34,960 nt of DNA, taken from the NCBI GenBank assembly GCA_964460695.1, contig CAYWSC010000001.1:1-34960 (forward strand), in the 5' to 3' direction. The DNA is from Candidatus Hadarchaeota archaeon. Its GTDB lineage: Archaea; CAYQAE01; CAYVLA01. Below the pieces are notes generated by a model, which saw nothing but the letters and a program-made list of their open reading frames with translations, was not told the DNA's origin and did no database searches. Below, in pieces: positions 1,580-18,648 of this stretch. The position numbers and the translations under genes were made by a program. Position 1 is the stretch's first letter, and every line of letters begins with the position of its first letter.

Positions 1580-1588
1580 ATTTAAAAG
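1580..1588 (+). promoter_or_regulatory. TATA-like box (ATTTAAAAG) about 28 nt upstream of ATG 1612
   Basis: A/T-rich box in otherwise GC-rich intergenic DNA. The same box-to-start spacing recurs at several other genes in the window. Confidence 0.5.
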
Positions 1589-1611
1589 TGCCGGTTGATG
1601 GGGGGCGGGCT

Positions 1612-3392: not shown

Positions 3393-4622
3393 TTACATGC
3401 TCCGCCTCTTCGACGCGGCTCTCGTGAGTGCCACTTGGCGGTACATCCTCTTCTTCACCATGAGGCTGTAGAGGATGGAGCCGGAAAGGAGCGAGGTTCC
3501 GCTCACGGCTAGCCACTCGATGAGATAGACCCAGAGCAGTGCCCTATCCTTCAGCCTAAGTGCTTTCTCCTCCGCCTGTTCGTACTCGCTAATGATCTCG
3601 TCGTAGGCCGCCGCACATCCCTCATAGTCGCCTTGGATGTACTTGTTCTCGGCTGCTTTTCGCTTCTCGTCGATGAGCGCGACTTCGGCTGCCAGGGACC
3701 GCGTCTTCGCACCGAACATCTCTGCGAATTCTAGGACCGAGAAGACCATGGATCTAACCTCATCCGACCTTGTTATGAGGGACCTGGCTTTTCTCACGAG
3801 CTCGAGGTCCTTGGGGATCTCGTGGCGCGTGGTGGCAAATACTAGGTTGTATGCATAGTCCTGTAGGTATCTCCATCCGCTAGTCGTTTCTGCGGGGATG
3901 TTGTCCCATCCGTGGCCTATCTGGATGATGGCACCATTCCCAGGCGTAGAGAAGGTGACGCAATCGTAGTTTGTGCCTCTCCATCGGGCGAGAACCTTGC
4001 TCCCGGGTCTTGCCTGCATAGCTCCGTGATGGCCTATGTTCATTGGGTAGGTTTCGATACCCGGTAGGTCTAGCACGTCGCTTTCGGCAATGAGCTGGTA
4101 GTAGTTGTCCATGCCCCTTGGGATCTCTTGGCCGAAGGTGATGTCGGCAGGCACTATGTCGTAGAAGGGAGAGATCATCCAGAGGTCTATTCTGTTGCCG
4201 TTTCCAAACCAGTAGACGAACTCAACAAGGATCGCTCCGAGTCCCTCGTCCACTACGGCTTTCTTGAGATCTGTCGTGAAGCCGGGCGCAAGGACCTCGG
4301 GATTCAAATCCTCAAGGAGTATGCAGTCGAACTGGCTGACGAGCTGGTCATAAGTACGGGGCATGTACATCCTGACCTGCCTCCTCGCATCTCTTAGGGG
4401 CATGTCTTGGGTTGAACAAGGCACGATGTCGATGTCTATCCTCGGCTCGAGTCTATACCAGTCGGCAAAGAGATTGACGTTCGCGTGCAACTCCCCGGTG
4501 AAGAGGAGTCGGATCTTTCCCGTCTCTGGATCGTGCCGTGGCTCGGACGCGGTCACCAGGGGCAGTAGGACAGACACCATCATTACCAGGAGCAGTCCAG
4601 TTTGGGTTCTTGCTGGTCTCAC
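3393..4622 (-). CDS. Family F member F1 (subtype with F3): signal peptide, ThuA/GATase1-like ectodomain, helical stalk, conserved C-terminal TM helix and basic tail; function unknown
   Basis: 409-aa ORF with GTG start. Signal peptide ending LVTA/SE. Blocks DPETGKIRLLFTGE, RMYMPRTYDQL..DCILLED, LEFAEMFGAKT. C-terminus DRALLWVYLIEWLAVSGTSLLSGSILYSLMVKKRMYRQVALTR. Confidence 0.9.
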   Translation of the reverse strand: MRPARTQTGLLLVMMVSVLLPLVTASEPRHDPETGKIRLLFTGELHANVNLFADWYRLEPRIDIDIVPCSTQDMPLRDARRQVRMYMPRTYDQLVSQFDCILLEDLNPEVLAPGFTTDLKKAVVDEGLGAILVEFVYWFGNGNRIDLWMISPFYDIVPADITFGQEIPRGMDNYYQLIAESDVLDLPGIETYPMNIGHHGAMQARPGSKVLARWRGTNYDCVTFSTPGNGAIIQIGHGWDNIPAETTSGWRYLQDYAYNLVFATTRHEIPKDLELVRKARSLITRSDEVRSMVFSVLEFAEMFGAKTRSLAAEVALIDEKRKAAENKYIQGDYEGCAAAYDEIISEYEQAEEKALRLKDRALLWVYLIEWLAVSGTSLLSGSILYSLMVKKRMYRQVALTRAASKRRSM

Positions 4623-4645
4623 GGCTCACCGCGCCCCTGTCCCCT

Positions 4646-4654
4646 TGTTAAATC
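4646..4654 (-). promoter_or_regulatory. TATA-like box (GATTTAACA on the minus strand) about 28 nt upstream of the F1 start at 4622
   Basis: Only A/T-rich patch in the 138-nt F2-F1 spacer. The spacing matches the other candidate boxes. Confidence 0.45.
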
Positions 4655-4760
4655 TTCAGTATGAACATAGACATCGCGCCTCGAACGTCGTGATGACGGA
4701 GGTCGCTGGCAAGTGGTCGCCTCTCTTGCTTTGAAGGACCCTCATCCTTTCGAAACTCGC

Positions 4761-6002
4761 CTACAGCCTCCTTCCCTTGCCTCTCGTCACGTAGACCTGC
4801 CTGTACAGGCGTCTCCTGACCATGAGGCTGTACAAGATGGTTCCCGTTATGAGGCATGTGGCCGTGACCACGAGGTACTCTATGACGTATACCCAGAAAA
4901 GCGCCCTATCTCTGAGCTTGACCGACTCGTCGGCCAGATCCTGCGCCCTGCTGATTACCTCATCCATCATTTCGACGGCAGACTGGAAGTCCTGGGCAAT
5001 GTAGAGCCGCTCGGCCTCCCTTCGCTTCGCCTCATTGTCCCCGATCTCTTTGGTGAGGGTCCGGGTGTTAGCATTGAATTTTTCGACGAAGTCTATTGTG
5101 GCCATTAAGAGCCGCTTCTGATCCTCGTATTTGGCTATCTGGGTCTTGAAGATGTGTCTAAGCTTGTGTTCGGCGGGCACGCGCACCCCAGCGACGTAAA
5201 GCACCAGGTTGCTCGCGAAGTCTCCGTAGTACTCCCATTTCATGAAGTACACACCGCCCCCGGGTGTCCAATCCGCCCCCATTGCGAAGGTTCTGCCATT
5301 TCCCTGTAGCCATGTTGCAAGGAAAGGATTCTCCAGGTTTCCGGCCTTCAAGACGGCGAGAAGTTCAGCGCCGTCCTTTAGAATAAGGTCGTTGAACCTA
5401 TCGAACCCGTTCATGGGGGGGACAAGCGTTTCCCAGGGCAGGCTTTGGATGAACTCGTTATCCCACTTCTTTATCTCGACAACGCCGAAAGCAGGATTGA
5501 AGCTCTGGTAGATTCCCTCCACAGGCAGGATCTTCGCCACAGATGTACCTATCCAAGCGGGTCTACCTGGCTCGGCTCCAAAGCTCTCAACTCCGCCTAT
5601 CATGGCTAGGCCCAATCCATCCTTGACGACTGCATCCTCGAACCATTGGAAGTGCCTAGGCTCGAAGAGACGGACACCGGCATCGCTGAAGAGGATGACA
5701 TCGTTGTTTCGAGACATCTCCTCGTAGGATCGGGGCATGTATATCCTCATGAACTTCCTAATGAACTTCTCTTGATACCATGCCAGAGTCGCCGGGACCC
5801 CGCGAACAGAGATCAGGGGCTCTTGCTCGAGTAGTCGAGCAGGCGTGTCGGCGCCGACGTAGTCCCCTATGTAGAGGAGGCGGACCTTTCCAGTGGCAGG
5901 GTCTCTCCTCGGCTCCCTAGCCACCGCTGGAACAGACAGCAGTAGAACAGATAGCAGTAGAATTGCGACCACTATCAGTGAGAATTGTATCGACCGGCTC
6001 AT
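4761..6002 (-). CDS. Family F member F2 (subtype with the interrupted F6)
   Basis: The ORF extends to 6074, but ATG 6002 gives MSRSIQFSLIVVAILLLSVLLLSVPAVA/REPRRDPATGKVRLLYIGD, matching the paralog N-termini, and lies 28 nt below a TTTTTAAA box. Blocks RIYMPRSYEEM..DVILFSD, IDFVEKFNANT, DRALFWVYVIEYLVVTATCLITGTILYSLMVRRRLYRQVYVTR. Confidence 0.88.
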   Translation of the reverse strand: MSRSIQFSLIVVAILLLSVLLLSVPAVAREPRRDPATGKVRLLYIGDYVGADTPARLLEQEPLISVRGVPATLAWYQEKFIRKFMRIYMPRSYEEMSRNNDVILFSDAGVRLFEPRHFQWFEDAVVKDGLGLAMIGGVESFGAEPGRPAWIGTSVAKILPVEGIYQSFNPAFGVVEIKKWDNEFIQSLPWETLVPPMNGFDRFNDLILKDGAELLAVLKAGNLENPFLATWLQGNGRTFAMGADWTPGGGVYFMKWEYYGDFASNLVLYVAGVRVPAEHKLRHIFKTQIAKYEDQKRLLMATIDFVEKFNANTRTLTKEIGDNEAKRREAERLYIAQDFQSAVEMMDEVISRAQDLADESVKLRDRALFWVYVIEYLVVTATCLITGTILYSLMVRRRLYRQVYVTRGKGRRL

Positions 6003-6026
6003 TGCGCTCTTCCAAGCCGGTTTCGG

Positions 6027-6034
6027 TTTAAAAA
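6027..6034 (-). promoter_or_regulatory. TATA-like box (TTTTTAAA on the minus strand) about 28 nt upstream of ATG 6002
   Basis: Read directly from the sequence. It lies inside the upstream extension of the tracked ORF, which argues for the shorter start. Confidence 0.5.
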
Positions 6035-6249
6035 GTGTTCCCATCTCCGTCGCTCGTACGGGAGGATTGACCACCTACGATCATTCTATCCGGCGACAAG
6101 GCCTGTTAACGCGGGAGAGGTGTATCGGAAGGGTGTAGTAATACTCGCTGCCCCGCCGAACAAGCTCGTCGCTTCTACTCTCGTGGTTCGTACAGTGTAC
6201 AATCTAGATCTACAAAGTGGAAGTAGGGTGCACAATGCCAAGAGGAAAC

Positions 6250-6258
6250 CTTTAAGAG
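6250..6258 (+). promoter_or_regulatory. Possible TATA-like box (CTTTAAGAG) upstream of the double-propeller gene
   Basis: About 50 nt upstream of ATG 6306, which is preceded by GAGGAGGT (6294-6301). This implies a leadered, SD-dependent transcript. Confidence 0.3.
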
Positions 6259-6305
6259 AAGGTTTGTTCCGTGCTGGAAACACCTACTCGGAGCGAGGAG
6301 GTAGA

Positions 6306-8921
6306 ATGAAAGTGAGGGGCAGAGTATTACGTAGCATTCCGACCGGGATCGTGCTCGTAGCATTTCTGGTCGGACTGGGAGCGCTTGTACCAGCGGTTGC
6401 AGCGGAACTTCAGCCGCTCTGGACGACGAATATCGGTGGGAGAATAGAGGCCCAGCCGGTAGTGGCCGAGATAACGGGCGACGGGTATCCCGACGTCGTA
6501 GTGGGATGCCGGGAGACTGGCGCTGTCTCGGCGCTGGACGGCAAGACAGGTCAGATAGTCTGGGAGTTCAATGCTGGCTACCAGATAGTCAGGAATCTCG
6601 CAGTAGGCGACATAAACGCCGACGGCAAGACGGAGGTCGTTTTCAATACACGAAACGGGACCCTTTGGGTACTCGACAATGCCGGCAAACTGATATGGCG
6701 AAAGGATCTCAGCGGGGGTGGAGAGCTGTACTGCGCGCCCACCATAGCTGACATCAATGGCGATGGCAAACTAGAGGTTCTATTGGGCTCGAAGGGGCTG
6801 AAGAAGTTCTTCGCGTTTGATGCGGATGGTAATGAGCTTTGGGAGGCTCCTATCGGAGCTATCGGTGACAACACCGCCGCTGTTGCGGATATCGATGGCG
6901 ACGGTCAACCGGAAGTGGTGATGACTTCGGAGGACGAGGTCCTCTATGCCGTGTACGCGTGGGAAGCGGACGGTACGCCGCTGTGGGTCGCACAGGTGGA
7001 GCCTGGCGACAGACTGAACGCGGCCGTTTCGATAGCGGACGTGGATGCCGACGGCAAGCTGGACATTGTAGTCGGCGGTGCCTACGAGGGACGTGTCTAC
7101 TGCCTGAATGCCGCAGACGGAAGCAGGAAATGGATGTTCGACTCCGGCGAGCCTGTCAGAGTGAGCAAAGCAGTGGTCGGCGACCTGAACGGCGACGGCA
7201 AATTCGACACGGTCTTCACACTCCGCAGAACGGGGATAGTAATTGCTGTCGACTACAAGGGCCAGGAGCTTTGGCGCGCCAACTTGACTGGTGAGGTCCT
7301 CCACAACTTCCAGCCAGAGGTTCCTGCGCTGGCGGATGTAACGGGTGATGGAAATCCCGACGTGGTGATTGGCGGATCTGACGGGAAGATCTATGCGTTG
7401 AAGGGTAGCGACGGAAGCATCGCGTGGACGTACCAAGCGATCAATTCAGGAAGATTCGGAGGAAATCAGCCCGTCATCGTTGATCTGGACGGCGACAAAG
7501 TGGCTGAGCTTCTTTACGGTGACGAGAGGGGAAACGTGAGCCTGCTGTCGACGAGCGGTTTGTATGTGGATGACTACACATCACCGTGGCCATACAGAGG
7601 AAGGACATTCGACAATGTGAACTACCTGTCGCGGAGGATGCCTCAGTGGACTGTTAATGTTGGTGGTAGGATTGAGTCTCCGCCGGTTGCGGCTGATCTG
7701 GATGGTGATGGTGTCAGTGAGGTTGTCGTTGGTTCTAGGGAGACTGGGAAGCTGTATGCGATAGATCTCAGTGGTAATATTCTCTGGGAGTTTGATGCTG
7801 GGGCGCAGATTATCAGGAATCCTGCGATCGGTGATATCAATGGTGATGGTAAGCTGGAGATCGTCTTCAATGCTAGGAACGGGACTATGCGCGTGCTGGA
7901 TAATACTGGTAAGCTGCTTTGGTCTAAGGATCTGAGTGGCGGCGGCGAGTTGTACTGTGCACCTGCGATTGCGGATGTCAATGGTGACGGCAAGCTGGAG
8001 ATCCTGGTGGGCTCGAAGGGGCTGAAGAAGTTCTTCGCGTTTGATGCGGATGGTAATGAGCTTTGGGAGGCTCCTATCGGGTCTATTGGTGAGAATACTG
8101 CTGCTGTTGCGGATATTGACGGTGATGGTCAGTTGGATGTGGTGATGACTTCGGAGGACGAGGTTCTGTATGCCATCTATGCTTGGAAGGGTGATGGTAC
8201 GCCTCTCTGGGTGAGTCAGGTCGAGCAGGGTGATCGGTTTAATGCGGCGCCTTCTATAGCGGATATCGACGGCGACGGCTATCTGGACATCGTGGCCGGA
8301 GGAGCATACCAGGGACGCCTGTATTGTGTCGACGATACTGGTACTCGTAAGTGGGTCTTTGATACTGGTGAGCGTGTCAGGGTGAGTAAGGCTGCTTTGG
8401 GCGATTTGAACGGTGATGGCAAGCTTGAGTCGGTGTTTACGTTGAGGAGGACGGGTAAGGTCTATGCCGTTGATTATAAGGGTGATGTGGTGTGGACCGC
8501 CGATCTTACTGGTGAGGTTTTGCATGGGTTCTTGCCTGAGGATCCGATCATTGCGGATGCTACTGGTGACGGTAAGCCTGATGTGATTTTGGGTGGGTCT
8601 AATGGCAGGATTTATGTCCTTAATGGTGAGGATGGTAGTCTTGCTTGGACCTACCAGGCTGTGAATGCGGGGAGGTTTACGTTTAACCAGCCGGTGATCG
8701 TTGATCTGAATGGTGACCATGTGGCAGAGATGCTGTATGGTGACGAGCGGGGCAATGTTTCCTTGTTGGATACGCCGGGTCTCTACGTTGACTACACGAC
8801 TACTCCATGGCCGCTCAAGTACAGAACCATCCAGAACACAAACTTCTACGGGATACCAGAGACTATCTTCGCAGCGCTCTCACTGATATCCTTGGCTTAT
8901 CTGAGGAGACTGAAGAGGTAG
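6306..8921 (+). CDS. Exported double beta-propeller protein with FG-GAP/VCBS-type DxDGDG calcium loops and PQQ/BamB-like blades; C-terminal TM anchor
   Basis: ATG 6306 follows GGAGGAGGT. Signal peptide MKVRGRVLRSIPTGIVLVAFLVGLGALVPAVAA. Sixteen D-x-[DN]-[GA]-D-[GK] loops (e.g. ITGDGYPDVVVG, INGDGKLEVLLG, IDGDGQPEVVM) alternate with G-x-x-x-W strands. The C-terminus is FAALSLISLAYL followed by RRLKR. Confidence 0.9.
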   Translation: MKVRGRVLRSIPTGIVLVAFLVGLGALVPAVAAELQPLWTTNIGGRIEAQPVVAEITGDGYPDVVVGCRETGAVSALDGKTGQIVWEFNAGYQIVRNLAVGDINADGKTEVVFNTRNGTLWVLDNAGKLIWRKDLSGGGELYCAPTIADINGDGKLEVLLGSKGLKKFFAFDADGNELWEAPIGAIGDNTAAVADIDGDGQPEVVMTSEDEVLYAVYAWEADGTPLWVAQVEPGDRLNAAVSIADVDADGKLDIVVGGAYEGRVYCLNAADGSRKWMFDSGEPVRVSKAVVGDLNGDGKFDTVFTLRRTGIVIAVDYKGQELWRANLTGEVLHNFQPEVPALADVTGDGNPDVVIGGSDGKIYALKGSDGSIAWTYQAINSGRFGGNQPVIVDLDGDKVAELLYGDERGNVSLLSTSGLYVDDYTSPWPYRGRTFDNVNYLSRRMPQWTVNVGGRIESPPVAADLDGDGVSEVVVGSRETGKLYAIDLSGNILWEFDAGAQIIRNPAIGDINGDGKLEIVFNARNGTMRVLDNTGKLLWSKDLSGGGELYCAPAIADVNGDGKLEILVGSKGLKKFFAFDADGNELWEAPIGSIGENTAAVADIDGDGQLDVVMTSEDEVLYAIYAWKGDGTPLWVSQVEQGDRFNAAPSIADIDGDGYLDIVAGGAYQGRLYCVDDTGTRKWVFDTGERVRVSKAALGDLNGDGKLESVFTLRRTGKVYAVDYKGDVVWTADLTGEVLHGFLPEDPIIADATGDGKPDVILGGSNGRIYVLNGEDGSLAWTYQAVNAGRFTFNQPVIVDLNGDHVAEMLYGDERGNVSLLDTPGLYVDYTTTPWPLKYRTIQNTNFYGIPETIFAALSLISLAYLRRLKR
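6415..8862 (+). repeat. Intragenic tandem duplication: two 1224-nt (408-codon) units, about 6415-7638 and 7639-8862
   Basis: The protein halves are colinear along their whole length. Exact nucleotide identity occurs at 6784-6856 = 8008-8080 (73 nt) and 6915-6940 = 8139-8164 (26 nt), both at offset 1224. Elsewhere the two units differ mainly at third codon positions. Confidence 0.9.
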
Positions 8922-8934
8922 GGCCCACCCTACC

Positions 8935-8947
8935 TTTTCCTTTTTTT
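8935..8947 (+). terminator. Oligo-T tract (TTTTCCTTTTTTT) 14 nt after the propeller gene stop
   Basis: Archaeal RNA polymerase terminates at oligo-T runs, and this is the longest T run in the window. It also sits about 28 nt before ATG 8972, so a promoter role cannot be excluded. Confidence 0.4.
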
Positions 8948-8971
8948 CGCTCCGAGGATGGGAGGATCGGA

Positions 8972-9859
8972 ATGAAGGTCGAACGGAGACTGATCGGAGT
9001 TCTGATCATCTCGCTCATAGTTGGAACTCTCATCTCTATGTACATGATCAGGGAGAAAATAGAGACGCCTGTGAGTCTGATCGACGAGTCCTACCCTCGT
9101 AGGGCCCTCTCGGGTACATCCGACCTTGATCAGGACAAGTATTCCGTGGCCTTCATCTGCCGCGAGGACCTGACTGAGGTGGCAGTGCACTTCGCGTCTC
9201 TAATCGAGGTCGAGCCCATCTTCAGTGGGTCAACGGGCAAGGTACAAGACCTGGAGAAGGCAGGGGAGCAGGTTGCGCAGATAAGCAACCAGCTTTCGTT
9301 GCTGAGGAAGGCGGGTTACGAACCGCAGGTCTTGGTAACCCAGGTCGAGATCGATGGAAGGAGGGAGACGGCTGTAGTCTACGATTTCAGCTCGCAGCTC
9401 AGCGCAGTGCTGCCTCCCGTCGGCTCTTCCCACTACCGGAGTATCTACGTCTTGCTAGTCAACAAGTCCAAGATGATCGACAGGCTATTCGAAGGGGTGC
9501 CCGACTTCTTCTTCATGAAGGACTTCTCGCTGCAGTCACTCGAGATTACGCTAAATGCGAACAAGACCGTCTATATGAAAGCAAAGGAGAAGGGGCAGCG
9601 TGAAGAGGGAACCCTGCCAATCTCCCAGGTCCCGGCCTACGGTACCGTGCTTTTTCGGAATCTGAAGCGAAACGACCGCGTCTCCATCGTATACAGGATA
9701 ATGTCCAGGCATGAACAGTACCCAGTGCTCTTCAGGAAGCAGCTTTCAAAGTCCAGATACGTCATCCACATGGTGAAGTTCCAGATAGACGGAGAGCTGG
9801 CCGAGGATAAGCTCCAGGTTCACGTAATGGACAATGGCGGGTATCAGGAGGAGACCTAA
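8972..9859 (+). CDS. Family X member X1: N-terminal TM anchor plus a domain of about 260 aa with no motif I recognise
   Basis: ATG 8972 is preceded by GGGAGGA. N-terminus MKVERRLIGVLIISLIVGTLI. Colinear with X2 (LPISQVPAYGTVLFRNLKRNDRVSIVY vs LPLSQAPSGVLTFRKVEKDDVVNVVF; IHMVKFQIDGE vs IAMIQMVKIYVDAK). The stop lies 1 nt before the Y1 start. Confidence 0.85.
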   Translation: MKVERRLIGVLIISLIVGTLISMYMIREKIETPVSLIDESYPRRALSGTSDLDQDKYSVAFICREDLTEVAVHFASLIEVEPIFSGSTGKVQDLEKAGEQVAQISNQLSLLRKAGYEPQVLVTQVEIDGRRETAVVYDFSSQLSAVLPPVGSSHYRSIYVLLVNKSKMIDRLFEGVPDFFFMKDFSLQSLEITLNANKTVYMKAKEKGQREEGTLPISQVPAYGTVLFRNLKRNDRVSIVYRIMSRHEQYPVLFRKQLSKSRYVIHMVKFQIDGELAEDKLQVHVMDNGGYQEET

Positions 9860-9860
9860 G

Positions 9861-10940
9861 GTGAAGAGGGTTTCTCTTGTCGTCGCATCGCTGGCCTTCA
9901 TTCTCCTTGGAAGCGTCACGGTGGGGGTGGCCGACGAGCCGGGGATAGTTCCAATCCTCTGCCAAAATGCGTATCATCCAATGACTGGTGAAGGGTCGAC
10001 CTTCGACAGATACGCAGCGGCACTTGCAGACATAATCAGGAACGACACTTCCCTCAACCTGGTCCCTGTGGTTGTCCACTCCTTGGGAGAGTTCGCTGAG
10101 TACCTCGGATATCCCCAGACCTACGCAGGTGTGCTATCGTTGTTCGAGGAGAAGATTCCAGAGCAGATGGACACCTCCAAGTTCTACTCTAGGACCCCCG
10201 AGGACCTGGAGAAGGCTATCTACGAGCTGTTCCGTTCAGGAGTCGGGCTCGTTGGGATGAATGACGTCGCCTTCTGCAGAAACCTATCCAAGACCGTGTT
10301 CCCTGTATTTGCCAACAGGTCCACGCCGGGGCAGATCGGGATAGTGGGCGGGAAACTCCAGATGGGACACTACTATCTCGTCGCGGATCCGACGCACCCC
10401 GTCGCGAATGGGCTCCCGGAGAAGGTGTTCTTTACGGACGTTATGATGAACTGGTGCTACACGACCGGAAAGGGAGGGGTGGAGGAGCCGCCAAAGCCTG
10501 CAGAGGGTGAAGTGACATTCGTTTACAAGACGAAGGTGAAGGGCAGTCCGTACAAGGATGGAATGGTCCCGGCTGTGATCGCGTATGAGAATGGGGGGCG
10601 CTCTGTGACCCTTCCTGCATTCGGCGTTACTGAGAGAGGCGGGCCAGATGATTATCGCGCAGTGATCAGCGACCCGAACTTCCAGACGCTCTTCAAGAAC
10701 TCTCTCAAGTGGGTTGCGGAGAGAGGCAAGGCTTCCTACCAGGGTCGGCTGGAGGAGTTCAAGTCCAGGATAGATGCGTCGCAGGAGGAGAAGCTTAGGC
10801 TGAGAGAGGAGGCAGACAAGTGGAAGAAGAAGGCTTCCCTAAGGAGGACAACGAAGCTGGCCGTGTTTACAATACTGGGCATTGTCGCAATCGTGGCTGT
10901 GTACAAGCTGACCTTCAAAGCAGAGGTCGAAGAAGAGTAG
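9861..10940 (+). CDS. Family Y member Y1: signal peptide/anchor, ThuA-like (class I GATase-like) domain, coiled coil, C-terminal hydrophobic helix, acidic end
   Basis: GTG 9861 is preferred over ATG 9834: AGGAGGA lies about 10 nt upstream, and both Y paralogs then start M-K-R. ThuA-like order of blocks: FRSGVGLVGMNDVAF, DPTHPVANGLPEKVFFTDVMMNW, PAVIAYENGGRSVTLPAFG, DPNFQTLFKNSLKWVAE. The tail is KKKASLRRTTK, then LAVFTILGIVAIVAVY, then KLTFKAEVEEE. Confidence 0.85.
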   Translation: MKRVSLVVASLAFILLGSVTVGVADEPGIVPILCQNAYHPMTGEGSTFDRYAAALADIIRNDTSLNLVPVVVHSLGEFAEYLGYPQTYAGVLSLFEEKIPEQMDTSKFYSRTPEDLEKAIYELFRSGVGLVGMNDVAFCRNLSKTVFPVFANRSTPGQIGIVGGKLQMGHYYLVADPTHPVANGLPEKVFFTDVMMNWCYTTGKGGVEEPPKPAEGEVTFVYKTKVKGSPYKDGMVPAVIAYENGGRSVTLPAFGVTERGGPDDYRAVISDPNFQTLFKNSLKWVAERGKASYQGRLEEFKSRIDASQEEKLRLREEADKWKKKASLRRTTKLAVFTILGIVAIVAVYKLTFKAEVEEE

Positions 10941-12133
10941 GGTTTCTACTGCTGGCGGGCGTCCTCCTGTCGCTGCTCGCGGTTACCTGTCAGGAACAGG
11001 TGTGGGCCAACTTCGGTCAGGACGACGGGCTCCCGTCCAGCGATGTCTACAGCATCGCAGCTCTAGAGAAAGATGTTTGGGCAGGGCTCGACGGGTCCGT
11101 GGCAAGATTTGTCGAATCGAATCAATCATGGGTCGCGCTGTTCCCACCTGGATTGGCGGCGAGGGTCACTAGCATTGCAATAGGCAAGGGAGAGGTGTGG
11201 TTCGGCACCTTCGGCAGCGGCATCTTCCGCTACCAAGATGGCGAATGGACCTCCTACACCAAGCGAGACGGATTGGCTGACGACAGGGTGGAGGACATCG
11301 CCATAGATGGCAGCTACCTATACGCTGCAACAGTTGCCGGGGCTAGCCGGCTGCCTCTTTCCGCTCAACCAGCTAGGTTTCAGACGGTAAGAAAAACTGA
11401 CGGGCTCCCTGACGAGGGGTTGTCGTCTGTATGCGTCCTGGGCGATATGGTGTGGTTCGGGAGCAGGGCGCACGGTGTCTTGGGGCTGGACGCTAGCAGC
11501 TTCTCGTACAAGAAACAGGTATCGATCGAGCAAGGCCTCTCAGACAGCAGGGTGCTCTCTCTAGCCTCAGACGGACAATACCTGTGGGTCGGAACGGGTG
11601 CCGGTGGAGTGTGTAGGTACGATCCAGCGGAGGAGTCCATCGTGGTCTACAACAAGTCAACAGGCCTTGCCGACAACTTGGTAGGATCGGTCGCAACGGA
11701 CTCCTCGGTATGGTGTGGAAGCTGGGGCTCGGGTGTCACAGCTCTTGACAAGGACGGAACGACGACGATTTACGATCGGTCGAAAGGGCTCGCAGACAAC
11801 GACGTTAGGGATATAGCGGTCGGTCAAAGAGAGGTGTGGTTTGCCACTGCAGGCGGAGTCTCACGCTTCACGGGCAAAGTTGCGGCAGGGAGAGGCGGCG
11901 TACCCGTAATATACGTCGTGGTTGGCGTCATCGTCATCGGGGCCATAGCCGTACCTTTGCTGCTCAGAGGGAGGTCGCATGCCGAGAAGACGGGGGTAAA
12001 GAAGAAGAAAATGCCCTACGAGCTTTGTGGTGGCGAACCCGCGGAGAATCTGTGCCCGTTCTGCAGGTACAATGTGGTCAGAGCCGGGAAGCATTACTGC
12101 TCGAGATACCGGGTCTCGATCCCCTTCGAGTAA
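10820..12133 (+). CDS. Single-pass membrane protein with an extracytoplasmic 7-blade Reg_prop-type (two-component-regulator propeller) domain and a Cys-rich cytoplasmic tail
   Basis: Seven repeats of the form GL[AP]D..V..IA.D...[VL]W.G[TS]..G[VI]..[FYL]. TM helix VPVIYVVVGVIVIGAIAVPLLL. The tail carries four Cys (C-x8-C-x2-C-x11-C). The start is uncertain: ATG 10820 is the only canonical start upstream of the signal sequence (RGRRRVGFLLLAGVLLSLLAV), and it overlaps Y1 by 121 nt. Confidence 0.75.
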   Translation: MEEEGFPKEDNEAGRVYNTGHCRNRGCVQADLQSRGRRRVGFLLLAGVLLSLLAVTCQEQVWANFGQDDGLPSSDVYSIAALEKDVWAGLDGSVARFVESNQSWVALFPPGLAARVTSIAIGKGEVWFGTFGSGIFRYQDGEWTSYTKRDGLADDRVEDIAIDGSYLYAATVAGASRLPLSAQPARFQTVRKTDGLPDEGLSSVCVLGDMVWFGSRAHGVLGLDASSFSYKKQVSIEQGLSDSRVLSLASDGQYLWVGTGAGGVCRYDPAEESIVVYNKSTGLADNLVGSVATDSSVWCGSWGSGVTALDKDGTTTIYDRSKGLADNDVRDIAVGQREVWFATAGGVSRFTGKVAAGRGGVPVIYVVVGVIVIGAIAVPLLLRGRSHAEKTGVKKKKMPYELCGGEPAENLCPFCRYNVVRAGKHYCSRYRVSIPFE

Positions 12134-12315
12134 GCCCGTAGATAGGGACGGGACGGCGAGCCGTCAGGCAGAGCTGCCAGGGGTTTTGGAGTTGCAGGAA
12201 GAGCCAAATACGGCGACCACTCACCAGTCACCTCCCATGTGGTTACCCCAATGGTCTTGCAGCAAGCATCGGGCAGCTGTCGCGGTGAGGATGTTTCGCG
12301 GGATGCTGGATGCAA

Positions 12316-12324
12316 CTTTTATGT
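12316..12324 (+). promoter_or_regulatory. TATA-like box (CTTTTATGT) about 28 nt upstream of ATG 12348
   Basis: Same spacing as the boxes for F1, F2 and 1612. Supports 12348 rather than 12027 as the F3 start. Confidence 0.45.
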
Positions 12325-12347
12325 CCGACGCTTTCCACGTGCTGGCC

Positions 12348-13565
12348 ATGAGAGGGAAGCTCTTGGCCGTGCTGCTCTTGATCGGCTTCTCGATGGCTTG
12401 CGGCATGTGCAAGAGCGATCCGGCAACGGGCAAGGTTCGGGTGATGTTCGTTGGGGAGGTAAGCTCCTACAACAGGATGGTTCTGGACTGGCTAATGGCT
12501 GAGCCGAGGATCCAGCTAACCAGAACTGTTCCGTGCGACATCCAGATCGTCGGGTATAAAGACGCCGTGCGGTTTGCGAGAATATATCTCCCGCGCAGCT
12601 ACAAGGGCCTCTTCGAGGACAACGACGTGGCGATCTTCCACGACTTCCACCCCAAGGTGCTTCCCAGGGGATCCATAGATTGGTTCGGACGGGCGGTGGA
12701 GAACGGCTTCGGCCTATGCCTCATAGAGTTCGCCTATAGGGTCGCCGGGTACGCCGGAATGGATGTGTGGCCAACGCTCCAGATATACAAGCTCTTCCCG
12801 GGAGAATTTGTAATAAATCAGATAGAGGCGATTTACGGACGGCAGTACTATAGGGTTGTCAAGGAGGGACCCCTCCTAGGTCTCCCAGGAATCGAGAAGT
12901 ACAGGATGAACTGGGGGTGGCACGGTGACCTTAAGCCGAGGCCGGGAACAGTAGTCTGGGCCGTGTGGAAAGGCAGGGGGACACCTGCAATTGTGACTGG
13001 TACGTATGGCCAGGGGAAGGTCCTTCAGATGGATTCTGGCTACGACACCCTGCCGCAGGAAACCAAACGAGCATGGCCCTATGTGGCTGACTTCGTTTAC
13101 AATCACGTGACCTTCGTGTCTGGGCTCCCGTTTCCGGACGATATCGAACTCACTCACACCACTCGGAGAAAATTCATACGGTATAGAGATGAAAAGGCCA
13201 TGGCGAATATGGTCCTGGAGTTCATCGAGAAGTTTGGTGCCAATCCGAGGCCTTTCGAAGTGGAGATGGCGGACATGGCGTCTGAATACTCGAAGGCGGA
13301 GCGGCTGTATATCGACGGGGATGTCGAAGAGGCAAACGCGGCGATCGACGATCTCCTGGACCGCTTCGTATCGCTGAGCAATGAGATGACGAAGGCCAAG
13401 GACAGGGCAATGCTGTGGATATACGTCTCTGAATGGCTTGCTGTCAGCGGGACATCCATGGTATGCGGGTTTGTCCTCTGGTCGCTGATGGTGAGAAAAA
13501 GGCTGTACAGGGAGGTCGAGATAACGAGGGCCTCCGGAGTGGTCAAGAAGGAATGGGGCAAGTGA
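12348..13565 (+). CDS. Family F member F3 (subtype with F1)
   Basis: Start chosen at MRGKLLAVLLLIGFSMACGMCKSDPATGKVRVMFVGE, colinear with F1. Blocks RIYLPRSYKGL..DVAIFHD, LPGIEKYRMNWGWHG, LEFIEKFGANP, DRAMLWIYVSEWLAVSGTSMVCGFVLWSLMVRKRLYREVEITR. Confidence 0.88.
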   Translation: MRGKLLAVLLLIGFSMACGMCKSDPATGKVRVMFVGEVSSYNRMVLDWLMAEPRIQLTRTVPCDIQIVGYKDAVRFARIYLPRSYKGLFEDNDVAIFHDFHPKVLPRGSIDWFGRAVENGFGLCLIEFAYRVAGYAGMDVWPTLQIYKLFPGEFVINQIEAIYGRQYYRVVKEGPLLGLPGIEKYRMNWGWHGDLKPRPGTVVWAVWKGRGTPAIVTGTYGQGKVLQMDSGYDTLPQETKRAWPYVADFVYNHVTFVSGLPFPDDIELTHTTRRKFIRYRDEKAMANMVLEFIEKFGANPRPFEVEMADMASEYSKAERLYIDGDVEEANAAIDDLLDRFVSLSNEMTKAKDRAMLWIYVSEWLAVSGTSMVCGFVLWSLMVRKRLYREVEITRASGVVKKEWGK

Positions 13566-13598
13566 GATGGAGGAGCAAGCTGTAAGGCCGGAAGCCTT

Positions 13599-14828
13599 CT
13601 ATTGGTTTTCGTGGGTGAGTTTTGTGACTTCCACCTCTCTGTAGAGGCGTCTTCTCACCATGAGGGTCCAGAGTATGAATCCCGAGATGAACAGCGCTGA
13701 TGTTGTTATGAGCCACTCGATGATGTATATCCAGAGTAGCGCCCTATCTTTAACCTTCTGGGCGACGGCCTCTGCATTTGAGAACTCTTCAAGGCCCTTC
13801 TTCAGATCGCTGTAGGCCCCGGAAAAGTCCTGCTGGTCGACGTACTTCTTGGTCCCCTCGTTGTAGAGGTCTTCAAGATTGAGGATCTCGTCCTGAATCT
13901 TCTCGGTGTTCGCCCCGAACTTGTCTACAAAGTCCCTCAGGGATATGAGGGCGGAGAGCCTGGTCACGAACTCTGTTATGACCCCTTTGAGGCTGTGGAA
14001 GATGTCAACAGTGTCCCTGGTTATCAGGCCGCGGTGCGTTATCCAGAGGATCATGTTCATCAGAATGTCGGGGGAGTACTGGTTGCCGCTCCCCCCGAAG
14101 CTGGGGTAGCCGAGCCAGCCGTTTCCGAGGAAGTCCCCTGTAGTTATTGATCTTCCCTCTCCGTACTCCCAGGCTACTATGTAGCCGACCCTTCCCTTTC
14201 CCGGGAATCCTGTCTGCCAGGCAAGGGTCTCGGCGGCCTCCCTAGCTACCACAAGGCCGTGGGCCGAGTAGGCAGAGACCTTCTCAACGTCGTAGGGGAC
14301 AAACGGCGTGAGGATCGGGTACCTGGCTTGTTTGTTTATGAAGATGTTGAATGAGTTTGTCATCCTCCACTGCTGGCTTAGAACGGCGTCGACATCGTTG
14401 GGGAAGGCCTGCTGGGCAAGTGAGGCTGCCCAGGCGGTGTTGATATCGGTGACAATGCTGAAAAGGCTCCCATCGTTGATTCCTCCAGCCCCCTCCCTTA
14501 TCGCGTCGCGAATCCACCTATCCTGCGTATTGGTCAGGAGGTAGTATTCTGGGGAGGTGAGAAGTATTGCATCGTATTTCTTCATCTCTTCGTACGTCCT
14601 GGGGTAGTAGAGGCGGATCTGCTTCTTCATCGCATCCACTGTTTCAATACCCCTGGTTATCACCGGTTGATAGGTGATCAAAGGTTCGTTGTCGAAGAAC
14701 ATCCTCATGACCTGCATTATCGCGGCGTGGCCGACTATCAGCGCGTTTATCTTCTCCGCGCCGCACGGTCCAGCGACTATCAGGAGAATGATTAGAGATG
14801 GACCGAGGAGTCTTGAAGGAGGCCGCAT
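13599..14828 (-). CDS. Family F member F4 (subtype with F5)
   Basis: 409-aa ORF with signal peptide MRPPSRLLGPSLIILLIVAGPCGA. Blocks RLYYPRTYEEMKKYDAILLTSP, VAWEYGEGRSITTGD, RDFVDKFGANT, DRALLWIYIIEWLITTSALFISGFILWTLMVRRRLYREVEVTK. Confidence 0.9.
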   Translation of the reverse strand: MRPPSRLLGPSLIILLIVAGPCGAEKINALIVGHAAIMQVMRMFFDNEPLITYQPVITRGIETVDAMKKQIRLYYPRTYEEMKKYDAILLTSPEYYLLTNTQDRWIRDAIREGAGGINDGSLFSIVTDINTAWAASLAQQAFPNDVDAVLSQQWRMTNSFNIFINKQARYPILTPFVPYDVEKVSAYSAHGLVVAREAAETLAWQTGFPGKGRVGYIVAWEYGEGRSITTGDFLGNGWLGYPSFGGSGNQYSPDILMNMILWITHRGLITRDTVDIFHSLKGVITEFVTRLSALISLRDFVDKFGANTEKIQDEILNLEDLYNEGTKKYVDQQDFSGAYSDLKKGLEEFSNAEAVAQKVKDRALLWIYIIEWLITTSALFISGFILWTLMVRRRLYREVEVTKLTHENQ

Positions 14829-14852
14829 GGCGCGGGGAAGGGGAAGGCAAAA

Positions 14853-14864
14853 CTAATATAAAAG
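14853..14864. promoter_or_regulatory. Shared, near-palindromic TATA element (CTAATATAAAAG / CTTTTATATTAG) in the 74-nt divergent F4 | X2 spacer
   Basis: Best TATA match in the window (TTTTATATTA on the minus strand). It is centred about 30 nt from the F4 ATG (14828) and about 45 nt from the X2 TTG (14903). X2 additionally has GGAGGG at 14890-14895. Confidence 0.55.
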
Positions 14865-14902
14865 ATTTGTGTGCTACCCGCAGCCGGCCGGAGGGTTGGT
14901 GG

Positions 14903-15754
14903 TTGGTCGGGAGGAGGGTTTTGGGTCTCGCAGCCGTGTCTATGATTCTTTCCTCTCTCATTGTTGCTTCAATAGCGAGGGAGAGAGTGGCTGAGCCCGT
15001 GGAGGTTCTGAAGAACGAGTTTCCAGAGGTCTCTCAGCCTGGCAGCGGCGCATTCTCATTTTCAGTCGTGTTCCGGAGGAGCGTTGAAGAGGCGCAATTG
15101 AGGTTCTATGCCCTCTACTCAGCCGTGTATCCGGCGGTCGAGCTTGTAGACCCGGACAGGGTGTTCAACGAGACCAGCTCGCCCAAGGATATGATCATGA
15201 ATGTGAAGGCCTTCAAGTGGTTTTCCGAGAAGGCGTCAGCCATAGGTCTTCTACCCGAGGACGTTGAGGCCAATGTGAAGATTGGCGGCGAGGAGTATAA
15301 GCTTCTGCTGCATGACTATTCTAGAGTTCTAGAGGCGGTGTGTGGGAACGAGACCACAGCCAGCGTTTCACCAGTTTTTGGATGCGTGATGAACAGGTCG
15401 GGCGCTGGCTACTATCTTGTCGGCGGCCCGGGGTTCTTCCGGGCTGCCAATGCAACACTGCTTGGGCTAGCAATCTCGGCGGGAGGGGCGGAGCACCGAT
15501 ATGTACCGGACGACCAGGTCAAGGCTGGGTCGGGGGAGCTCCCGCTCTCACAGGCCCCGAGCGGCGTTTTGACGTTTAGAAAGGTGGAGAAGGACGATGT
15601 TGTGAATGTTGTTTTCTCCGTACGGGGTGGTGCATTGCCCCGGCCTATGAAGACGCCGATCGCGATGATCCAGATGGTAAAGATCTACGTGGACGCCAAA
15701 ATCATGGGAGAGCCGATACTGAACATCATCAAGTCAGGAGGGTGGCGGGCGTGA
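14903..15754 (+). CDS. Family X member X2
   Basis: TTG 14903 is chosen because GGAGGG lies 7 nt upstream and the N-terminus (M)VGRRVLGLAAVSMILSSLIVASI parallels X1 MKVERRLIGVLIISLIVGTLI. The tracked ORF start at 14798 would overlap the F4 start and the TATA box. The stop TGA overlaps the Y2 GTG (GTGA). Confidence 0.8.
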   Translation: MVGRRVLGLAAVSMILSSLIVASIARERVAEPVEVLKNEFPEVSQPGSGAFSFSVVFRRSVEEAQLRFYALYSAVYPAVELVDPDRVFNETSSPKDMIMNVKAFKWFSEKASAIGLLPEDVEANVKIGGEEYKLLLHDYSRVLEAVCGNETTASVSPVFGCVMNRSGAGYYLVGGPGFFRAANATLLGLAISAGGAEHRYVPDDQVKAGSGELPLSQAPSGVLTFRKVEKDDVVNVVFSVRGGALPRPMKTPIAMIQMVKIYVDAKIMGEPILNIIKSGGWRA

Positions 15755-16770
15755 AGCGCACAGCAAAGAAGAGGTGGCTTGCAGGAACCGTCAAACTACT
15801 CTTTGCGCTTCTTCTGGCTTTATCGACTCTGGTAGCCCAGTGCGGGGGAAGTCAGGACGTCAACGTCACCCCCATGATCTATCTCTACGCCCCTGGAGAC
15901 CGCACCTTTGCCGGCATGCTTGCCTCCTTGATTGGGAACGACACTAGGATCAGGCAGAGCGGGGCAAAAGTTGAGTTGCTGGACACCCAGAGCGAGGTGA
16001 TTTGGGCGACAGCCCTCCCAAACACGGCGTGCCTCGTTATATACTCGGACAATGCCAGGCAGCTAGAGGGGCTTGAGACACCTCTTCTCGCCTTCTTCAA
16101 GAACGGCGGTGGGCTGCTTGGCATCAGGGAGATCTGTTTCAAGCACAGAGGTTTGGAGCGGCTGGTCAGCGTCGTATTCCCGACCTTCGCCAACGGATCC
16201 ATCAAGCAGACGGGGACGGCCAAGAGAAGAGTTAGAACCTATGTGGCGGTCGAGCCCGGTGAGATTGGAGAGGAGCTTCCAGATAGATTTGACCTTGTGA
16301 GCATGGGTACCTACTATTGTGCTGATCAGGATGGAAACTATTTGCGGATTCCGAGCAACTACCAGGTTGCGTATATGGATGAGGAGATAGGCGCGCCTCT
16401 AGTTGTCGTTGCGGAGAGTGATCGTGGCGGACGATCGGTAGGGATGCCGGGAATCTGGGTCGTGAAGGCATCCAGAGTGGACATATACTACGGCAATCTG
16501 GTTTCCGATGAGAATTTCGTAAGGCTCTTCACCAACTCGGTCGTCTGGGCGATGGAGTCCTCTTGGTTCAGAGACAAGGGGCTGAATATGCACAGGAGGA
16601 TGGCGCAGATGATAGAGAAGGAGGAGACGCTGGCAAAGGACCTGGAGAGGATTGAGCGCACCAAGAAGGGCCGTAGAACCATCGTCCTGGCCGTGCTTTG
16701 GGTCATAGGCCTTGCGGCGTGCGCTGTTATTGCAAGGAACACGATCCTTGTGCCCCTCGAAGAGGAGTGA
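15751..16770 (+). CDS. Family Y member Y2 (ThuA-like, coiled coil, C-terminal helix, acidic end)
   Basis: GTG 15751 lies about 9 nt after CAGGAGGG. GTG 15742 is the alternative. Blocks FKNGGGLLGIREICF, VFPTFANGS, VVAESDRGGRSVGMPG, DENFVRLFTNSVVWAME. The tail is TKKGRRT, then IVLAVLWVIGLAACAVIA, then RNTILVPLEEE. Confidence 0.85.
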   Translation: MKRTAKKRWLAGTVKLLFALLLALSTLVAQCGGSQDVNVTPMIYLYAPGDRTFAGMLASLIGNDTRIRQSGAKVELLDTQSEVIWATALPNTACLVIYSDNARQLEGLETPLLAFFKNGGGLLGIREICFKHRGLERLVSVVFPTFANGSIKQTGTAKRRVRTYVAVEPGEIGEELPDRFDLVSMGTYYCADQDGNYLRIPSNYQVAYMDEEIGAPLVVVAESDRGGRSVGMPGIWVVKASRVDIYYGNLVSDENFVRLFTNSVVWAMESSWFRDKGLNMHRRMAQMIEKEETLAKDLERIERTKKGRRTIVLAVLWVIGLAACAVIARNTILVPLEEE

Positions 16771-16854
16771 GGCGGCATTGCGCCTATGGCAGTGTGGACA
16801 AACGACACGAGAATCCGTTGGGACAAATGTCGGGTGCTCGGGAGGTGTGATGTT

Positions 16855-17319
16855 ATGGCACCAAAGGCCTTGGTTGCATACTACTCGCGATCCGGCGGAA
16901 CCCAACTCATGGCAGAGGAGATAGCCGAGGGACTCCGTTCTCGCGGCATTGATGTCGATGTTAGGCGCATTGAAGATTGCAGGGTTAGGGACCTCAGGGC
17001 TGCTGATGTACTTGTGCTGGGCTCTCCGACTTATTTCAGCAATATGTCCTGGCAGGTGAAGCGCCTGGTAGACGAGTCGATAGAGCTATACACTTCAGGC
17101 GATCTCTCAGGAAAAGTGTTTGGCTGCTTCACCTCTGCAGGGACGAGGAGGGATGCCGAGGAATGTATAAAGATGCTCGAGCTAGCCTTCGGCTTCCACC
17201 ATCGAATGAGGTCGGTCCCGGGAATCTACGCCACGTCGGGGGAGTCCAGGGAGCAGATTCGAGAACGATGTAGGGAGTATGCTGGTCTGATAGCCAAGGC
17301 CCTATTAGAAGGGGGATGA
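16855..17319 (+). CDS. Flavodoxin-like fold protein (flavodoxin / WrbA-type FMN protein), cytoplasmic
   Basis: ATG 16855 follows GGAGGTG. N-terminal FMN-phosphate-loop-like ALVAYYSRSGGTQLMAEEIA, and VLVLGSPTYFSNMSWQVKRLVDES, typical of the flavodoxin-like fold. No signal peptide or TM segment. Confidence 0.75.
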   Translation: MAPKALVAYYSRSGGTQLMAEEIAEGLRSRGIDVDVRRIEDCRVRDLRAADVLVLGSPTYFSNMSWQVKRLVDESIELYTSGDLSGKVFGCFTSAGTRRDAEECIKMLELAFGFHHRMRSVPGIYATSGESREQIRERCREYAGLIAKALLEGG

Positions 17320-17323
17320 GAGG

Positions 17324-18574
17324 GTGCAAGGAGGGACTCTCCGAGAGAGGGCAGTGCTTGCAGCATTGTGGCTTCTCGTCCCACTGGCACTCTCAGCGCA
17401 GGCCTGTTCTGCGCAGAAGATCAGGGTCTTGCTTACGGGCCAGATAGACCAGTCGGTAAACCCCCTGCAGGTTTGGTTCAAGGCGGAGCCCCTGGTCGAC
17501 TATCTTGCCGTGCCTTCAAGGGATCTTAGAGGAATCCTAGGCGGGGACAAGGCGATGAGCAGGTTCATCAGGATATACTTTCCGAGGAGCTACCAGGACC
17601 TCAGCAGCTACGAATTCATCCTCCTCAACTCCCCCGTAACGAGTCTCTTCAGCAAGACGCAGCTCGACTGGATGTACAGGGCCATTGTTGACGGATCAGG
17701 GGGGCTGAACACGGCAAGCATCATGAGCCAGTTTCCAGACGTCTACGGTGGTTGGGTCGAGTCTGTTCTTCAAGAGGCGTTTCCAAACGATGCGCCGCTT
17801 GTGGTCCAGAAGTTCGGGGGCGCGACCAGCAAGACGAAAGCCTTTCACATCGTCGTCAACCGCGACTTTCCCGTCCCAGTCCTCACGCCCTTCATACCCC
17901 TCGGCGTGGAGCGTTTTCTCGGCGAGGATTCGCGGTTCATCATACTCAGGCCGGGGGCATCCGCGCTGGCGTACCAGGTCGGCAACTTCCCGGGGTACAG
18001 GGACGTTCCGTACATCGCCGTCTGGGAGTATGGAAAGGGAAGAACCATGACAACGGGCGATGCCTTCGGGCATACCTTCTGGTCCTCTTACCGCGGAACC
18101 AGCAGCGACAACATCTATGCCCTTGACATTCTCATGAACCTCATATTCTACGCTACACACAGAAAAGTCGCGGAGGATGTTCAAGCCTTTCACATGGCTA
18201 GGAGCTACTTCATGGAGTTCAGGACTAGGATGGCAGTTCTCCTAGGGCTGAAGGACTTCGTCGAGAAGTTCGGGGCCAGGACTCGAAGCGTGGACGAGAT
18301 GGTGGCCAGACTTGAGGAATTGAACAGGGAGGCGGGAGACCGGTACGTCCAGCAGGACTTCGAAGGGTGTGAACAAGTCATGAAGGAAGCGTTCGACCTG
18401 TTCAAGGAGACTGAGGTAGCGACGGTGAAGCTCAAGCAGAGGGCGCTGATGTGGGTATATCTCGTTGAATGGCTCGCAACTACATCCGTTCTGCTTTTCT
18501 CGGGTTTCCTTCTCTGGTCGCTCATGGTGAGGAGGCAGCTGTACAGGGGGGTCGGGTACACTAGGGCTGGGTGA
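17324..18574 (+). CDS. Family F member F5 (subtype with F4)
   Basis: GTG start 4 nt after the flavodoxin stop. Signal peptide ...LLVPLALSAQA. Blocks RIYFPRSYQDLSSYEFILLNSP, IAVWEYGKGRTMTTGD, KDFVEKFGART, QRALMWVYLVEWLATTSVLLFSGFLLWSLMVRRQLYRGVGYTR. Confidence 0.9.
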   Translation: MQGGTLRERAVLAALWLLVPLALSAQACSAQKIRVLLTGQIDQSVNPLQVWFKAEPLVDYLAVPSRDLRGILGGDKAMSRFIRIYFPRSYQDLSSYEFILLNSPVTSLFSKTQLDWMYRAIVDGSGGLNTASIMSQFPDVYGGWVESVLQEAFPNDAPLVVQKFGGATSKTKAFHIVVNRDFPVPVLTPFIPLGVERFLGEDSRFIILRPGASALAYQVGNFPGYRDVPYIAVWEYGKGRTMTTGDAFGHTFWSSYRGTSSDNIYALDILMNLIFYATHRKVAEDVQAFHMARSYFMEFRTRMAVLLGLKDFVEKFGARTRSVDEMVARLEELNREAGDRYVQQDFEGCEQVMKEAFDLFKETEVATVKLKQRALMWVYLVEWLATTSVLLFSGFLLWSLMVRRQLYRGVGYTRAG

Positions 18575-18648
18575 GATGTTTTGCGGTAACTCCACCCGGC
18601 CCGCCGTCTCTCTGGGGCGGCGAAGAGGAGGCGTCCCTATCCGCGTGT

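Follow-up and report, generated by a model that had tools for sequence, protein, structure and literature searches.

Single-pass membrane anchors normally drift, and the question raised by the DNA stretch studied here (34,960 nt, positions 1 to 34,960 of contig CAYWSC010000001.1 from a Candidatus Hadarchaeota archaeon, assembly GCA_964460695.1; hereafter the window) is why a set of paralogous surface proteins encoded in it should have kept the anchor and the adjoining tail as their best-conserved part. We refer to these proteins as the GATase1-like type-I surface-protein family ("the family") and to their C-terminal juxtamembrane, transmembrane (TM) and tail segment as the module. The comparisons described below show that the juxtamembrane residues, the TM helix and the first ~12 residues of the tail are kept to one consensus by protein-level purifying selection. 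A near-constant anchor and tail across hundreds of old paralogs points to an interface that no database describes.

The list of open reading frames (ORFs) and their translations yielded five intact family copies, one interrupted copy and one relic, the same seven loci that an initial annotation of this DNA had reported, with the five intact ones at identical positions. Paralog A (409 aa) is encoded at 3393-4622 on the minus strand and comprises a signal peptide, a GATase1-like ectodomain, a helical stalk and the C-terminal helix with its tail; its module (aa 358-409, beginning KDRALLWVYLIEWLAVSGTSLLSGSILYSLMVKKRMYRQVALTR) maps to 3396-3551 (-), and the protein is 100% identical to the metagenomic homolog P0001. 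Paralog B (4761-6002, -; 413 aa) has its module at aa 364-413 (4764-4913, -), Paralog C (12348-13565, +; 405 aa) at aa 351-405 (13398-13562, +), Paralog D (13599-14828, -; 409 aa) at aa 360-409 (13602-13751, -), and Paralog E (17324-18574, +; 416 aa, with a GTG start) at aa 371-416 (18434-18571, +). The interrupted copy, the pseudogene Paralog F (24558-25841, -; module at aa 382-427, 24561-24698, -), is one frame broken by a single in-frame TGA (25293-25295) at a site occupied by an ordinary residue in the other paralogs; this TGA is most likely a recent nonsense mutation, with a sequencing error or read-through as the alternatives. The relic (23621-23686, +) retains 22 codons, which cover the last part of the TM helix plus the tail and read ...LWALVVRRRLYREVGVTRGGA*, and is preceded by no ORF.

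Every copy has an N-terminal hydrophobic, signal-like segment and a C-terminal hydrophobic helix followed by a basic cluster. The three motif blocks described in the initial annotation can be read in the window translations just as it gave them, namely RxY[MLFY]PR[TS]Y in the ectodomain (RMYMPRTY, RIYMPRSY, RIYLPRSY, RLYYPRTY, RIYFPRSY, RIYMPRTY), a stalk motif (FAEMFGAK, FVEKFNAN, FIEKFGAN, FVDKFGAN, FVEKFGAR), and a C-terminus of the form [KR][DQK][RG]A[LM][LFM]W[VI]Y..E[WY]L, TM helix, LMV[RK][RK][RQ][LM]YR.V..T[RK]. BLASTP aligns the window copies over their full length with 25-40% identity, but this value conceals a steep gradient: in the codon alignment of window paralog pairs the ectodomain and stalk are 18-38% identical, compared with 44-63% over the last ~46 columns. 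The claim that the C-terminus is the best-conserved part therefore holds in the window, and it extends family-wide to 341 unique homologs. In an 80-sequence alignment, the last three full blocks of 15 residues carry 3.3, 2.8 and 2.4 bits of information, while the remaining blocks do not exceed 2.6 bits, the block with RxYMPRTY being the next best. The pattern is not explained by hydrophobic composition alone, because two controls lack it: the signal-peptide blocks of the same family carry 1.2-1.5 bits, and the C-terminal anchor of F4 (a neighbouring protein family, see below) carries 2.0-2.3 bits and is no better conserved than the F4 ectodomain.

The 80 sequences, all of them unannotated metagenomic homologs, came from a profile search with a shared-word method that could favour proteins sharing the tail. 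Therefore a profile of the ectodomain only (A2) was compared exhaustively, with no word index, to 1.84 billion cluster representatives, and reported 616 matches with E-value <=1e-3 and 118 with E-value <=1e-30. Among the best 150 of these matches, 125 of the 126 full-length proteins carry the module (E-value <1e-5), from which it follows that ectodomain and module are inherited together. The reverse search, with the C-terminus as the only query against a database of 5.8 billion proteins, yielded nothing but fragments, none longer than 111 aa, and those inspected were truncated remnants starting from an internal Met. As this result is uninformative on modularity, six-frame scans of 1.2 Mb of related loci were used in its place; they gave 165 module matches, 160 of them in ORFs that also encode the family ectodomain, whereas the other five are pieces of pseudogenes. 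Truncated C-terminal remnants are frequent both in metagenomes and in the related loci, which is consistent with frequent gene loss.

The logo of the 341 unique sequences gives the module consensus K-D-R-A-L-L-W-V-Y-x-I-E-W-L-A-V-x-G-T-x3-S-G-x2-L-W-x-L-M-V-R-R-R-L-Y-R-E-V-x-x-T-R. The most frequent residues are spread over its whole length (W9 95%, E14 95%, W15 90%, G26 89%, W30 78%, M33 99%, R36 90%, Y39 91%, T45 96%), small or polar residues occur within the helix (G20, T21, S25, G26), and past the basic cluster 10-12 further residues are conserved, including L38, Y39, V42, T45 and R46. A spacing of 3-4 residues suspected by eye was dropped after Fourier and permutation analysis (p ~0.3).

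Relatives were collected by scanning one genome per GTDB species with a 6-sequence alignment, which gave 122 relatives and 72 loci that were kept. All but one of these loci (71/72) come from three archaeal metagenome-assembled genomes (MAGs), the remaining one being a Bathyarchaeota contig. The family is confined to a small number of MAGs from uncultured archaea. Within them it is strongly expanded: the six-frame hidden Markov model (HMM) scans of the 1.2 Mb, whose counts are lower bounds, found at least 38 copies in CAZJVP01 (labelled "uncultured Thermococci archaeon"), at least 58 in CAYVLA01 and at least 52 in CAZUNO01 (both labelled "Ca. Hadarchaeota archaeon"). One of the 80 homologs of the first search (P0068) is labelled Theionarchaea. 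The public labels of family-bearing genomes thus include Thermococci, Hadarchaeota, Theionarchaea and Bathyarchaeota, and seem to disagree over what may be a single lineage; between-genome pairs of family proteins reach 50-80% ectodomain identity.

With so many copies, which are clustered and in some cases adjacent, one has to ask if the conservation of the 3' ends reflects protein function at all, or rather recent duplication, gene conversion, an antisense gene or a DNA or RNA element. The initial annotation had itself named recent duplicates with conversion-homogenised 3' ends as an outcome that would undermine its proposal. No such sign was found. Among identical residues of the window paralogs the use of identical codons is ~40%, alike in the module and elsewhere, and the nucleotide identity of the module is 53-66%; since codon use is equally scrambled in both regions, gene conversion, constraint at the DNA or RNA level and constraint by an antisense ORF are ruled out. 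A comparison of 11,026 pairs from the three MAGs, the window and one JGI contig showed that module identity is equal within and between genomes in every bin of ectodomain identity, without any within-genome excess, and that it plateaus at ~51% where ectodomain identity is 15-30%. The paralogs, whose ectodomains have drifted to ~25% identity, are old and are all held to one consensus. Long ORFs do occur antisense to family genes (4074-4394, +; 12879-13598, -; 18208-18636, -; ~100 more in the related loci), are conserved and cluster as apparent families, but they are not genes, only shadows cast by the conserved sense frame; they would mislead a naive ORF-based annotation. Scans of the window for tRNAs and against Rfam gave no matches. 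Altogether, we consider an origin of the pattern outside protein function extremely improbable.

The fold of the ectodomain could be assigned to a catalogued family. This family, PF07090 (GATase1_like), is placed by Pfam in the clan of class-I glutamine-amidotransferase-like folds. In single-sequence scans only Paralog B matched PF07090 (41.3 bits, cut-off 27), with no match for the other four intact copies, while precomputed PF07090 matches exist on ~30 of the 80 homologs. The family profile matched three PDB entries with E-values of 2e-19 to 6e-18: 2GK3 (Salmonella STM3548), 3SOZ (Salmonella STM1381) and 3RHT (Planctomyces limnophilus). The AlphaFold2 model of Paralog C, built from a 78-sequence alignment (predicted local distance difference test, pLDDT, 93), contains a signal helix, an alpha/beta domain (residues 30-258) and helices 266-295, 301-322 and 326-383, the last of which runs unbroken from the stalk through the membrane; the tail is of low confidence and modelled as disordered. 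Foldseek ranked solved PF07090 proteins in places 1-4 (probability 1.0, target-normalised TM-score 0.65-0.72), followed by GH42-type middle domains, true amidotransferases and Agd3 (6nwz_A, E-value 4.1e-4). Family proteins are thereby shown to consist of a Sec-type signal peptide, an alpha/beta ectodomain, a three-helix stalk, a TM helix and a cytoplasmic tail of ~20 residues.

In the 78-sequence alignment the invariant ectodomain residues are R78, Y80, P82, R83 and P151, and no Cys or His is invariant or near-invariant; the Cys-His-Glu triad of amidotransferases is therefore absent, and on these sequence grounds the ectodomain is predicted to be a non-catalytic GATase1-like domain of PF07090. 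The bacterial PF07090 proteins have in common with it the core motifs GGLLMIGG..SF.G, VLPVD and PLLV...G.G and, as tested, the lack of the triad. They differ in being soluble single-domain proteins of ~250 aa, deposited as cytoplasmic, whereas the archaeal family adds the signal peptide, RxYxPRxY, the three-helix stalk, the TM/tail module and dozens of copies per genome. RxYxPRxY was considered as a general functional site of PF07090 and rejected, as the bacterial structures do not conserve it. The initial annotation would have regarded a match to a characterised family as a refutation; the ectodomain does belong to a catalogued family, but PF07090 is itself without a known function (STM3548 was still uncharacterised in a 2026 paper), and the proteins remain an uncharacterised family. 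We found no paper that describes it. What was already known is the PF07090 ectodomain family; what is new are the stalk with the invariant TM/tail module and the massive expansion.

A functional hint comes from the one relative by fold that has been characterised, Agd3 of Aspergillus fumigatus, the N-terminal GATase1-like domain of which has 3RHT as its closest structure and was shown experimentally to be a carbohydrate-binding module (PMC7229062). This domain (CBM87) and the family ectodomain both have a GATase1-like fold without the triad. Agd3 is however eukaryotic, fused to a CE18 deacetylase and devoid of a membrane anchor, and there is neither detectable sequence similarity to the family nor evidence of common binding-site residues.

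The order of elements in the module, i.e. a motif, a hydrophobic helix and a basic cluster, led the initial annotation to a formal comparison with signals read by sortases, exosortases or rhombosortases. One could imagine that the module is a new sorting or processing signal, and that a dedicated intramembrane enzyme (archaeosortase-like or rhomboid/rhombosortase-like) cuts near W-V-Y-x-I-E-W and releases or re-anchors the ectodomain. Such an order, together with dozens of copies per genome, is typical of C-terminal sorting signals, the carriers of which are, however, usually homologous in the tail only (PMC3237569). The module, in each of its 160 intact occurrences, is attached to one homologous ectodomain, and nearly all ectodomain homologs carry it (see above). 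The outer half of the module's helix contains small, helix-weakening residues (G/A/S20, T21, S25, G26), a feature that resembles rhomboid substrates. Against this, conservation runs through the helix to M33 and past the basic cluster to Y39 and T45, and an anchor that is discarded would not need it. The likeness to LPXTG, PEP-CTERM, PGF-CTERM, GlyGly-CTERM and MYXO-CTERM is thus limited to the order of elements, the many copies per genome and the restriction to a lineage, while the occurrence on one family, the conservation beyond the basic cluster and the 10-20 residues that follow it set the module apart. The initial annotation saw no match to LPXTG, PEP-CTERM, PGF-CTERM or GlyGly-CTERM. The CTERM models of NCBIfam/TIGRFAM matched neither the full proteins at E-value <=1 nor the isolated C-termini at E-value <=10, and the only NCBIfam match was a sub-threshold one to CcmD (14-15 bits). 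A Pfam scan of ~20 large ORFs of the window showed no sortase- or rhomboid-like gene, and none was seen in the recurrent neighbour clusters with an annotation (not all clusters are annotated). With one ectodomain, conservation through the helix and beyond the basic cluster, and no CTERM match, we regard a sortase-type signal as unlikely, and this part of the initial annotation is not sustained.

Its comparison with SlaB, the S-layer anchor of Sulfolobales, stands as far as the loose architecture is concerned: both are of type-I topology, with an extracellular domain carried on a helical stalk and one TM helix at the C-terminus. The fold and the stalk differ. SlaB, a single-copy partner of SlaA, combines beta-sandwich domains with a long coiled coil that is trimeric, while the family has an alpha/beta GATase1-like fold, a three-helix bundle in the monomer model and dozens of paralogs. 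SlaB was not among the PDB profile and Foldseek matches, and no slaA-like gene was seen among the neighbours (F3, F4, carbohydrate-active enzymes). A possible functional analogy is offered by the variant-specific surface proteins of Giardia and by the Box1-type tails of cytokine receptors, where the divergent ectodomains of many paralogs are carried by a near-invariant TM segment and short tail, and the tail serves shared trafficking or docking to one partner. These families are nonetheless eukaryotic, unrelated in sequence and fold, and placed in another biological context.

With Kyte-Doolittle values of 1.6-2.0 over 19 residues, the C-terminal helix of the family is no more than moderately hydrophobic. 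A weakly hydrophobic helix of this kind, with its aromatic and Arg-cluster flanks, might be conserved for a generic reason, such as stop-transfer, membrane insertion or stability in the lipids of this lineage. The other C-terminally anchored families of the window (F2, F4 and the FG-GAP protein), however, have unrelated and poorly conserved anchors, and hydrophobic matching does not explain why E14, M33, Y39 and T45 are near-invariant. A generic need is accordingly very unlikely to be the answer.

A more specific possibility is that the helix serves homo-oligomerisation only, for instance in a trimeric stalk/TM bundle, with no other partner. The GATase1-like middle domain of GH42 enzymes, which mediates trimerisation, is among the structural matches, the crystal entries of PF07090 hold 3-6 chains, and the helix contains residues resembling a small-xxx-small pattern. 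Yet a self-complementary interface could drift separately in each paralog, while ~350 paralogs in several genomes keep one consensus; conservation also extends into the tail, which is modelled as disordered, and follows neither a heptad nor a single-face pattern. We find private homo-oligomers an improbable explanation. That all paralogs, in whichever genome, keep one consensus makes promiscuous hetero-assembly or a conserved partner common to them all the likelier alternative.

Our preferred reading, to which we assign a probability of roughly 45%, is that the module is a shared in-membrane and cytoplasmic assembly module that carries diversified, probably glycan-binding, ectodomains. One surface, in the membrane and in the cytoplasm close to it, would be common to all paralogs and would meet the same conserved partner or partners in each case. 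These may be other paralogs, with which hetero-oligomers would form, or a membrane or cytoplasmic protein that all paralogs share, or both. Because the module combines near-invariant polar, aromatic and small residues with a conserved cytoplasmic continuation, and no single helical face stands out, contacts would be expected on several sides, within the membrane as well as on its cytoplasmic side. The diversified ectodomains would most likely bind different, possibly sulfated, glycans, as suggested by the genomic company of the family and by the fold analogy with CBM87 of Agd3. The oligomerisation or docking role mentioned as an alternative in the initial annotation fits the data best, although we infer it only from these patterns.

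Several observations speak against this assembly reading. Conservation of the module shows no helical-face or heptad periodicity in the Fourier and permutation analysis; the helix therefore looks constrained on all sides, and a direct signature of one interface is missing. The structural support consists of a monomer prediction, with the partner being hypothetical. Glycan binding is argued from genomic company and analogy, and of RxYxPRxY only the Pro is kept in the bacterial PF07090 structures. The frequencies of neighbouring genes, counted in loci collected around family members, have no genomic background, and some family copies lie amid housekeeping genes (e.g. for ribosomal protein S8e or a PurP-type protein). 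Finally, copies beside F3, a candidate partner discussed below (n=29), fit the module consensus as well as copies away from it (n=131).

F3 is a family of N-terminally anchored (type-II), beta-rich proteins, represented in the window at 8807-9859 (+) and 14798-15754 (+). The true start of the latter is probably ~35 codons downstream, judging from the 283-aa homolog P0285. A degenerate F3-like copy (23742-24329, +) adjoins pseudogene F; window ORFs 23640-24326 and 24047-24511 fall into one similarity cluster of neighbour ORFs. A family gene lies within 600 bp of 27 of the 30 F3 genes and directly upstream on the same strand of 15, and 11 of the 30 are followed by F4. The best-conserved block of F3 is its own TM anchor (D-R-x-L-x-G....L-V-x-S-T), and its structure model is of low confidence (pLDDT 54, from 4 database homologs). 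F3, a type-II protein whose anchor is its best-conserved part, could be one candidate partner of the module, as a lead only. As the fit to the consensus is equal with and without an adjacent F3, F3 is not the sole reason for the conservation of the module unless it acts in trans, and we rejected it in that role.

F4 proteins (9834-10940, +; 15742-16770, +) have a signal peptide, a distant GATase1/ThuA-like domain (hhalign with the family ectodomain: 92%), a helical stalk and a non-conserved C-terminal TM helix. A cassette of F3, F4, one variable gene (for a Reg_prop protein or a flavodoxin) and a family copy occurs twice in the window (8807-13565 and 14798-18574), and F3-F4 pairs beside family genes recur in many related loci. 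An ABC/FtsX transporter was also considered as a partner; the FtsX permease formed no recurrent cluster, and ABC (ATP-binding cassette) ATPases, found in 18/74 loci, have no background against which enrichment could be judged.

Sulfatases are present in 18/74 loci and URO-D-like proteins in 14, in the window at 25959-27011 (+) next to family genes as in the related loci; other recurrent neighbours are GFO/IDH/MocA oxidoreductases, GH29 fucosidase, GH39 and an AXE1-like esterase. The related loci (L001-L073) and the window at 18649-20916, 27220-28899 and 33758-34759 are rich in sulfatases and in GH29, GH39, AXE1-like, BNR/GHL-type and GFO/IDH/MocA genes, a predicted set that points to degradation of sulfated polysaccharides. 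We found no paper describing such degradation in these lineages.

A truly modular C-terminal tail exists in the same lineage. In this tail a TM helix and a basic linker are followed, at the extreme C-terminus, by a cytoplasmic Cys4 zinc-ribbon (C..C-x2-C-[RK]-[HY]-[YN]-x-[ILV]-x-[GA]-G-x3-C), and the ectodomains of the surface proteins that bear it are unrelated, e.g. a Reg_prop beta-propeller or a GH39/cellulase-like domain. Carriers were found in the window (10820-12133, +) and in the related loci L001 (3088-4830), L002 (8133-10028, 773-2332 and 1-765), L003 (1868-3373) and L062 (13178-14443). L001, L002 and L003 are syntenic with the window, and in them a 978-aa FG-GAP/beta-propeller protein with a C-terminal anchor (window 5985-8921, +) is kept upstream of family genes. 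At the start of the window, two adjacent paralogs (8-1420 and 1588-3369, both +) are 42% identical and have no Pfam match; both end in C-terminal TM anchors, the second has an N-terminal hydrophobic segment as well, and the first, which starts at the window edge, shows none. Their relatives occur in a few of the related loci and their anchors are not conserved.

The assembly reading can be extended to a surface-receptor system of these archaea, in which dozens of glycan-binding ectodomains per genome plug through one helix into a single conserved signalling, uptake or scaffold machine, perhaps with F3. We consider this extension doubtful; if true, it would be an archaeal counterpart of the surface glycan-binding proteins encoded by polysaccharide utilization loci, or of multi-chain receptors with a common signalling subunit. 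The module is short and sharply defined, and is easily made into an HMM for phylogenetic profiling. The family accounts for unusually many genes in each genome of these uncultured archaea, which live in sediments and encode sulfatases and glycosidases in abundance. Identifying the target of its helix could reveal in what way their cell surface is organised and polysaccharides are captured or sensed, and would provide PF07090, a widespread domain of unknown function, with a first functional context.

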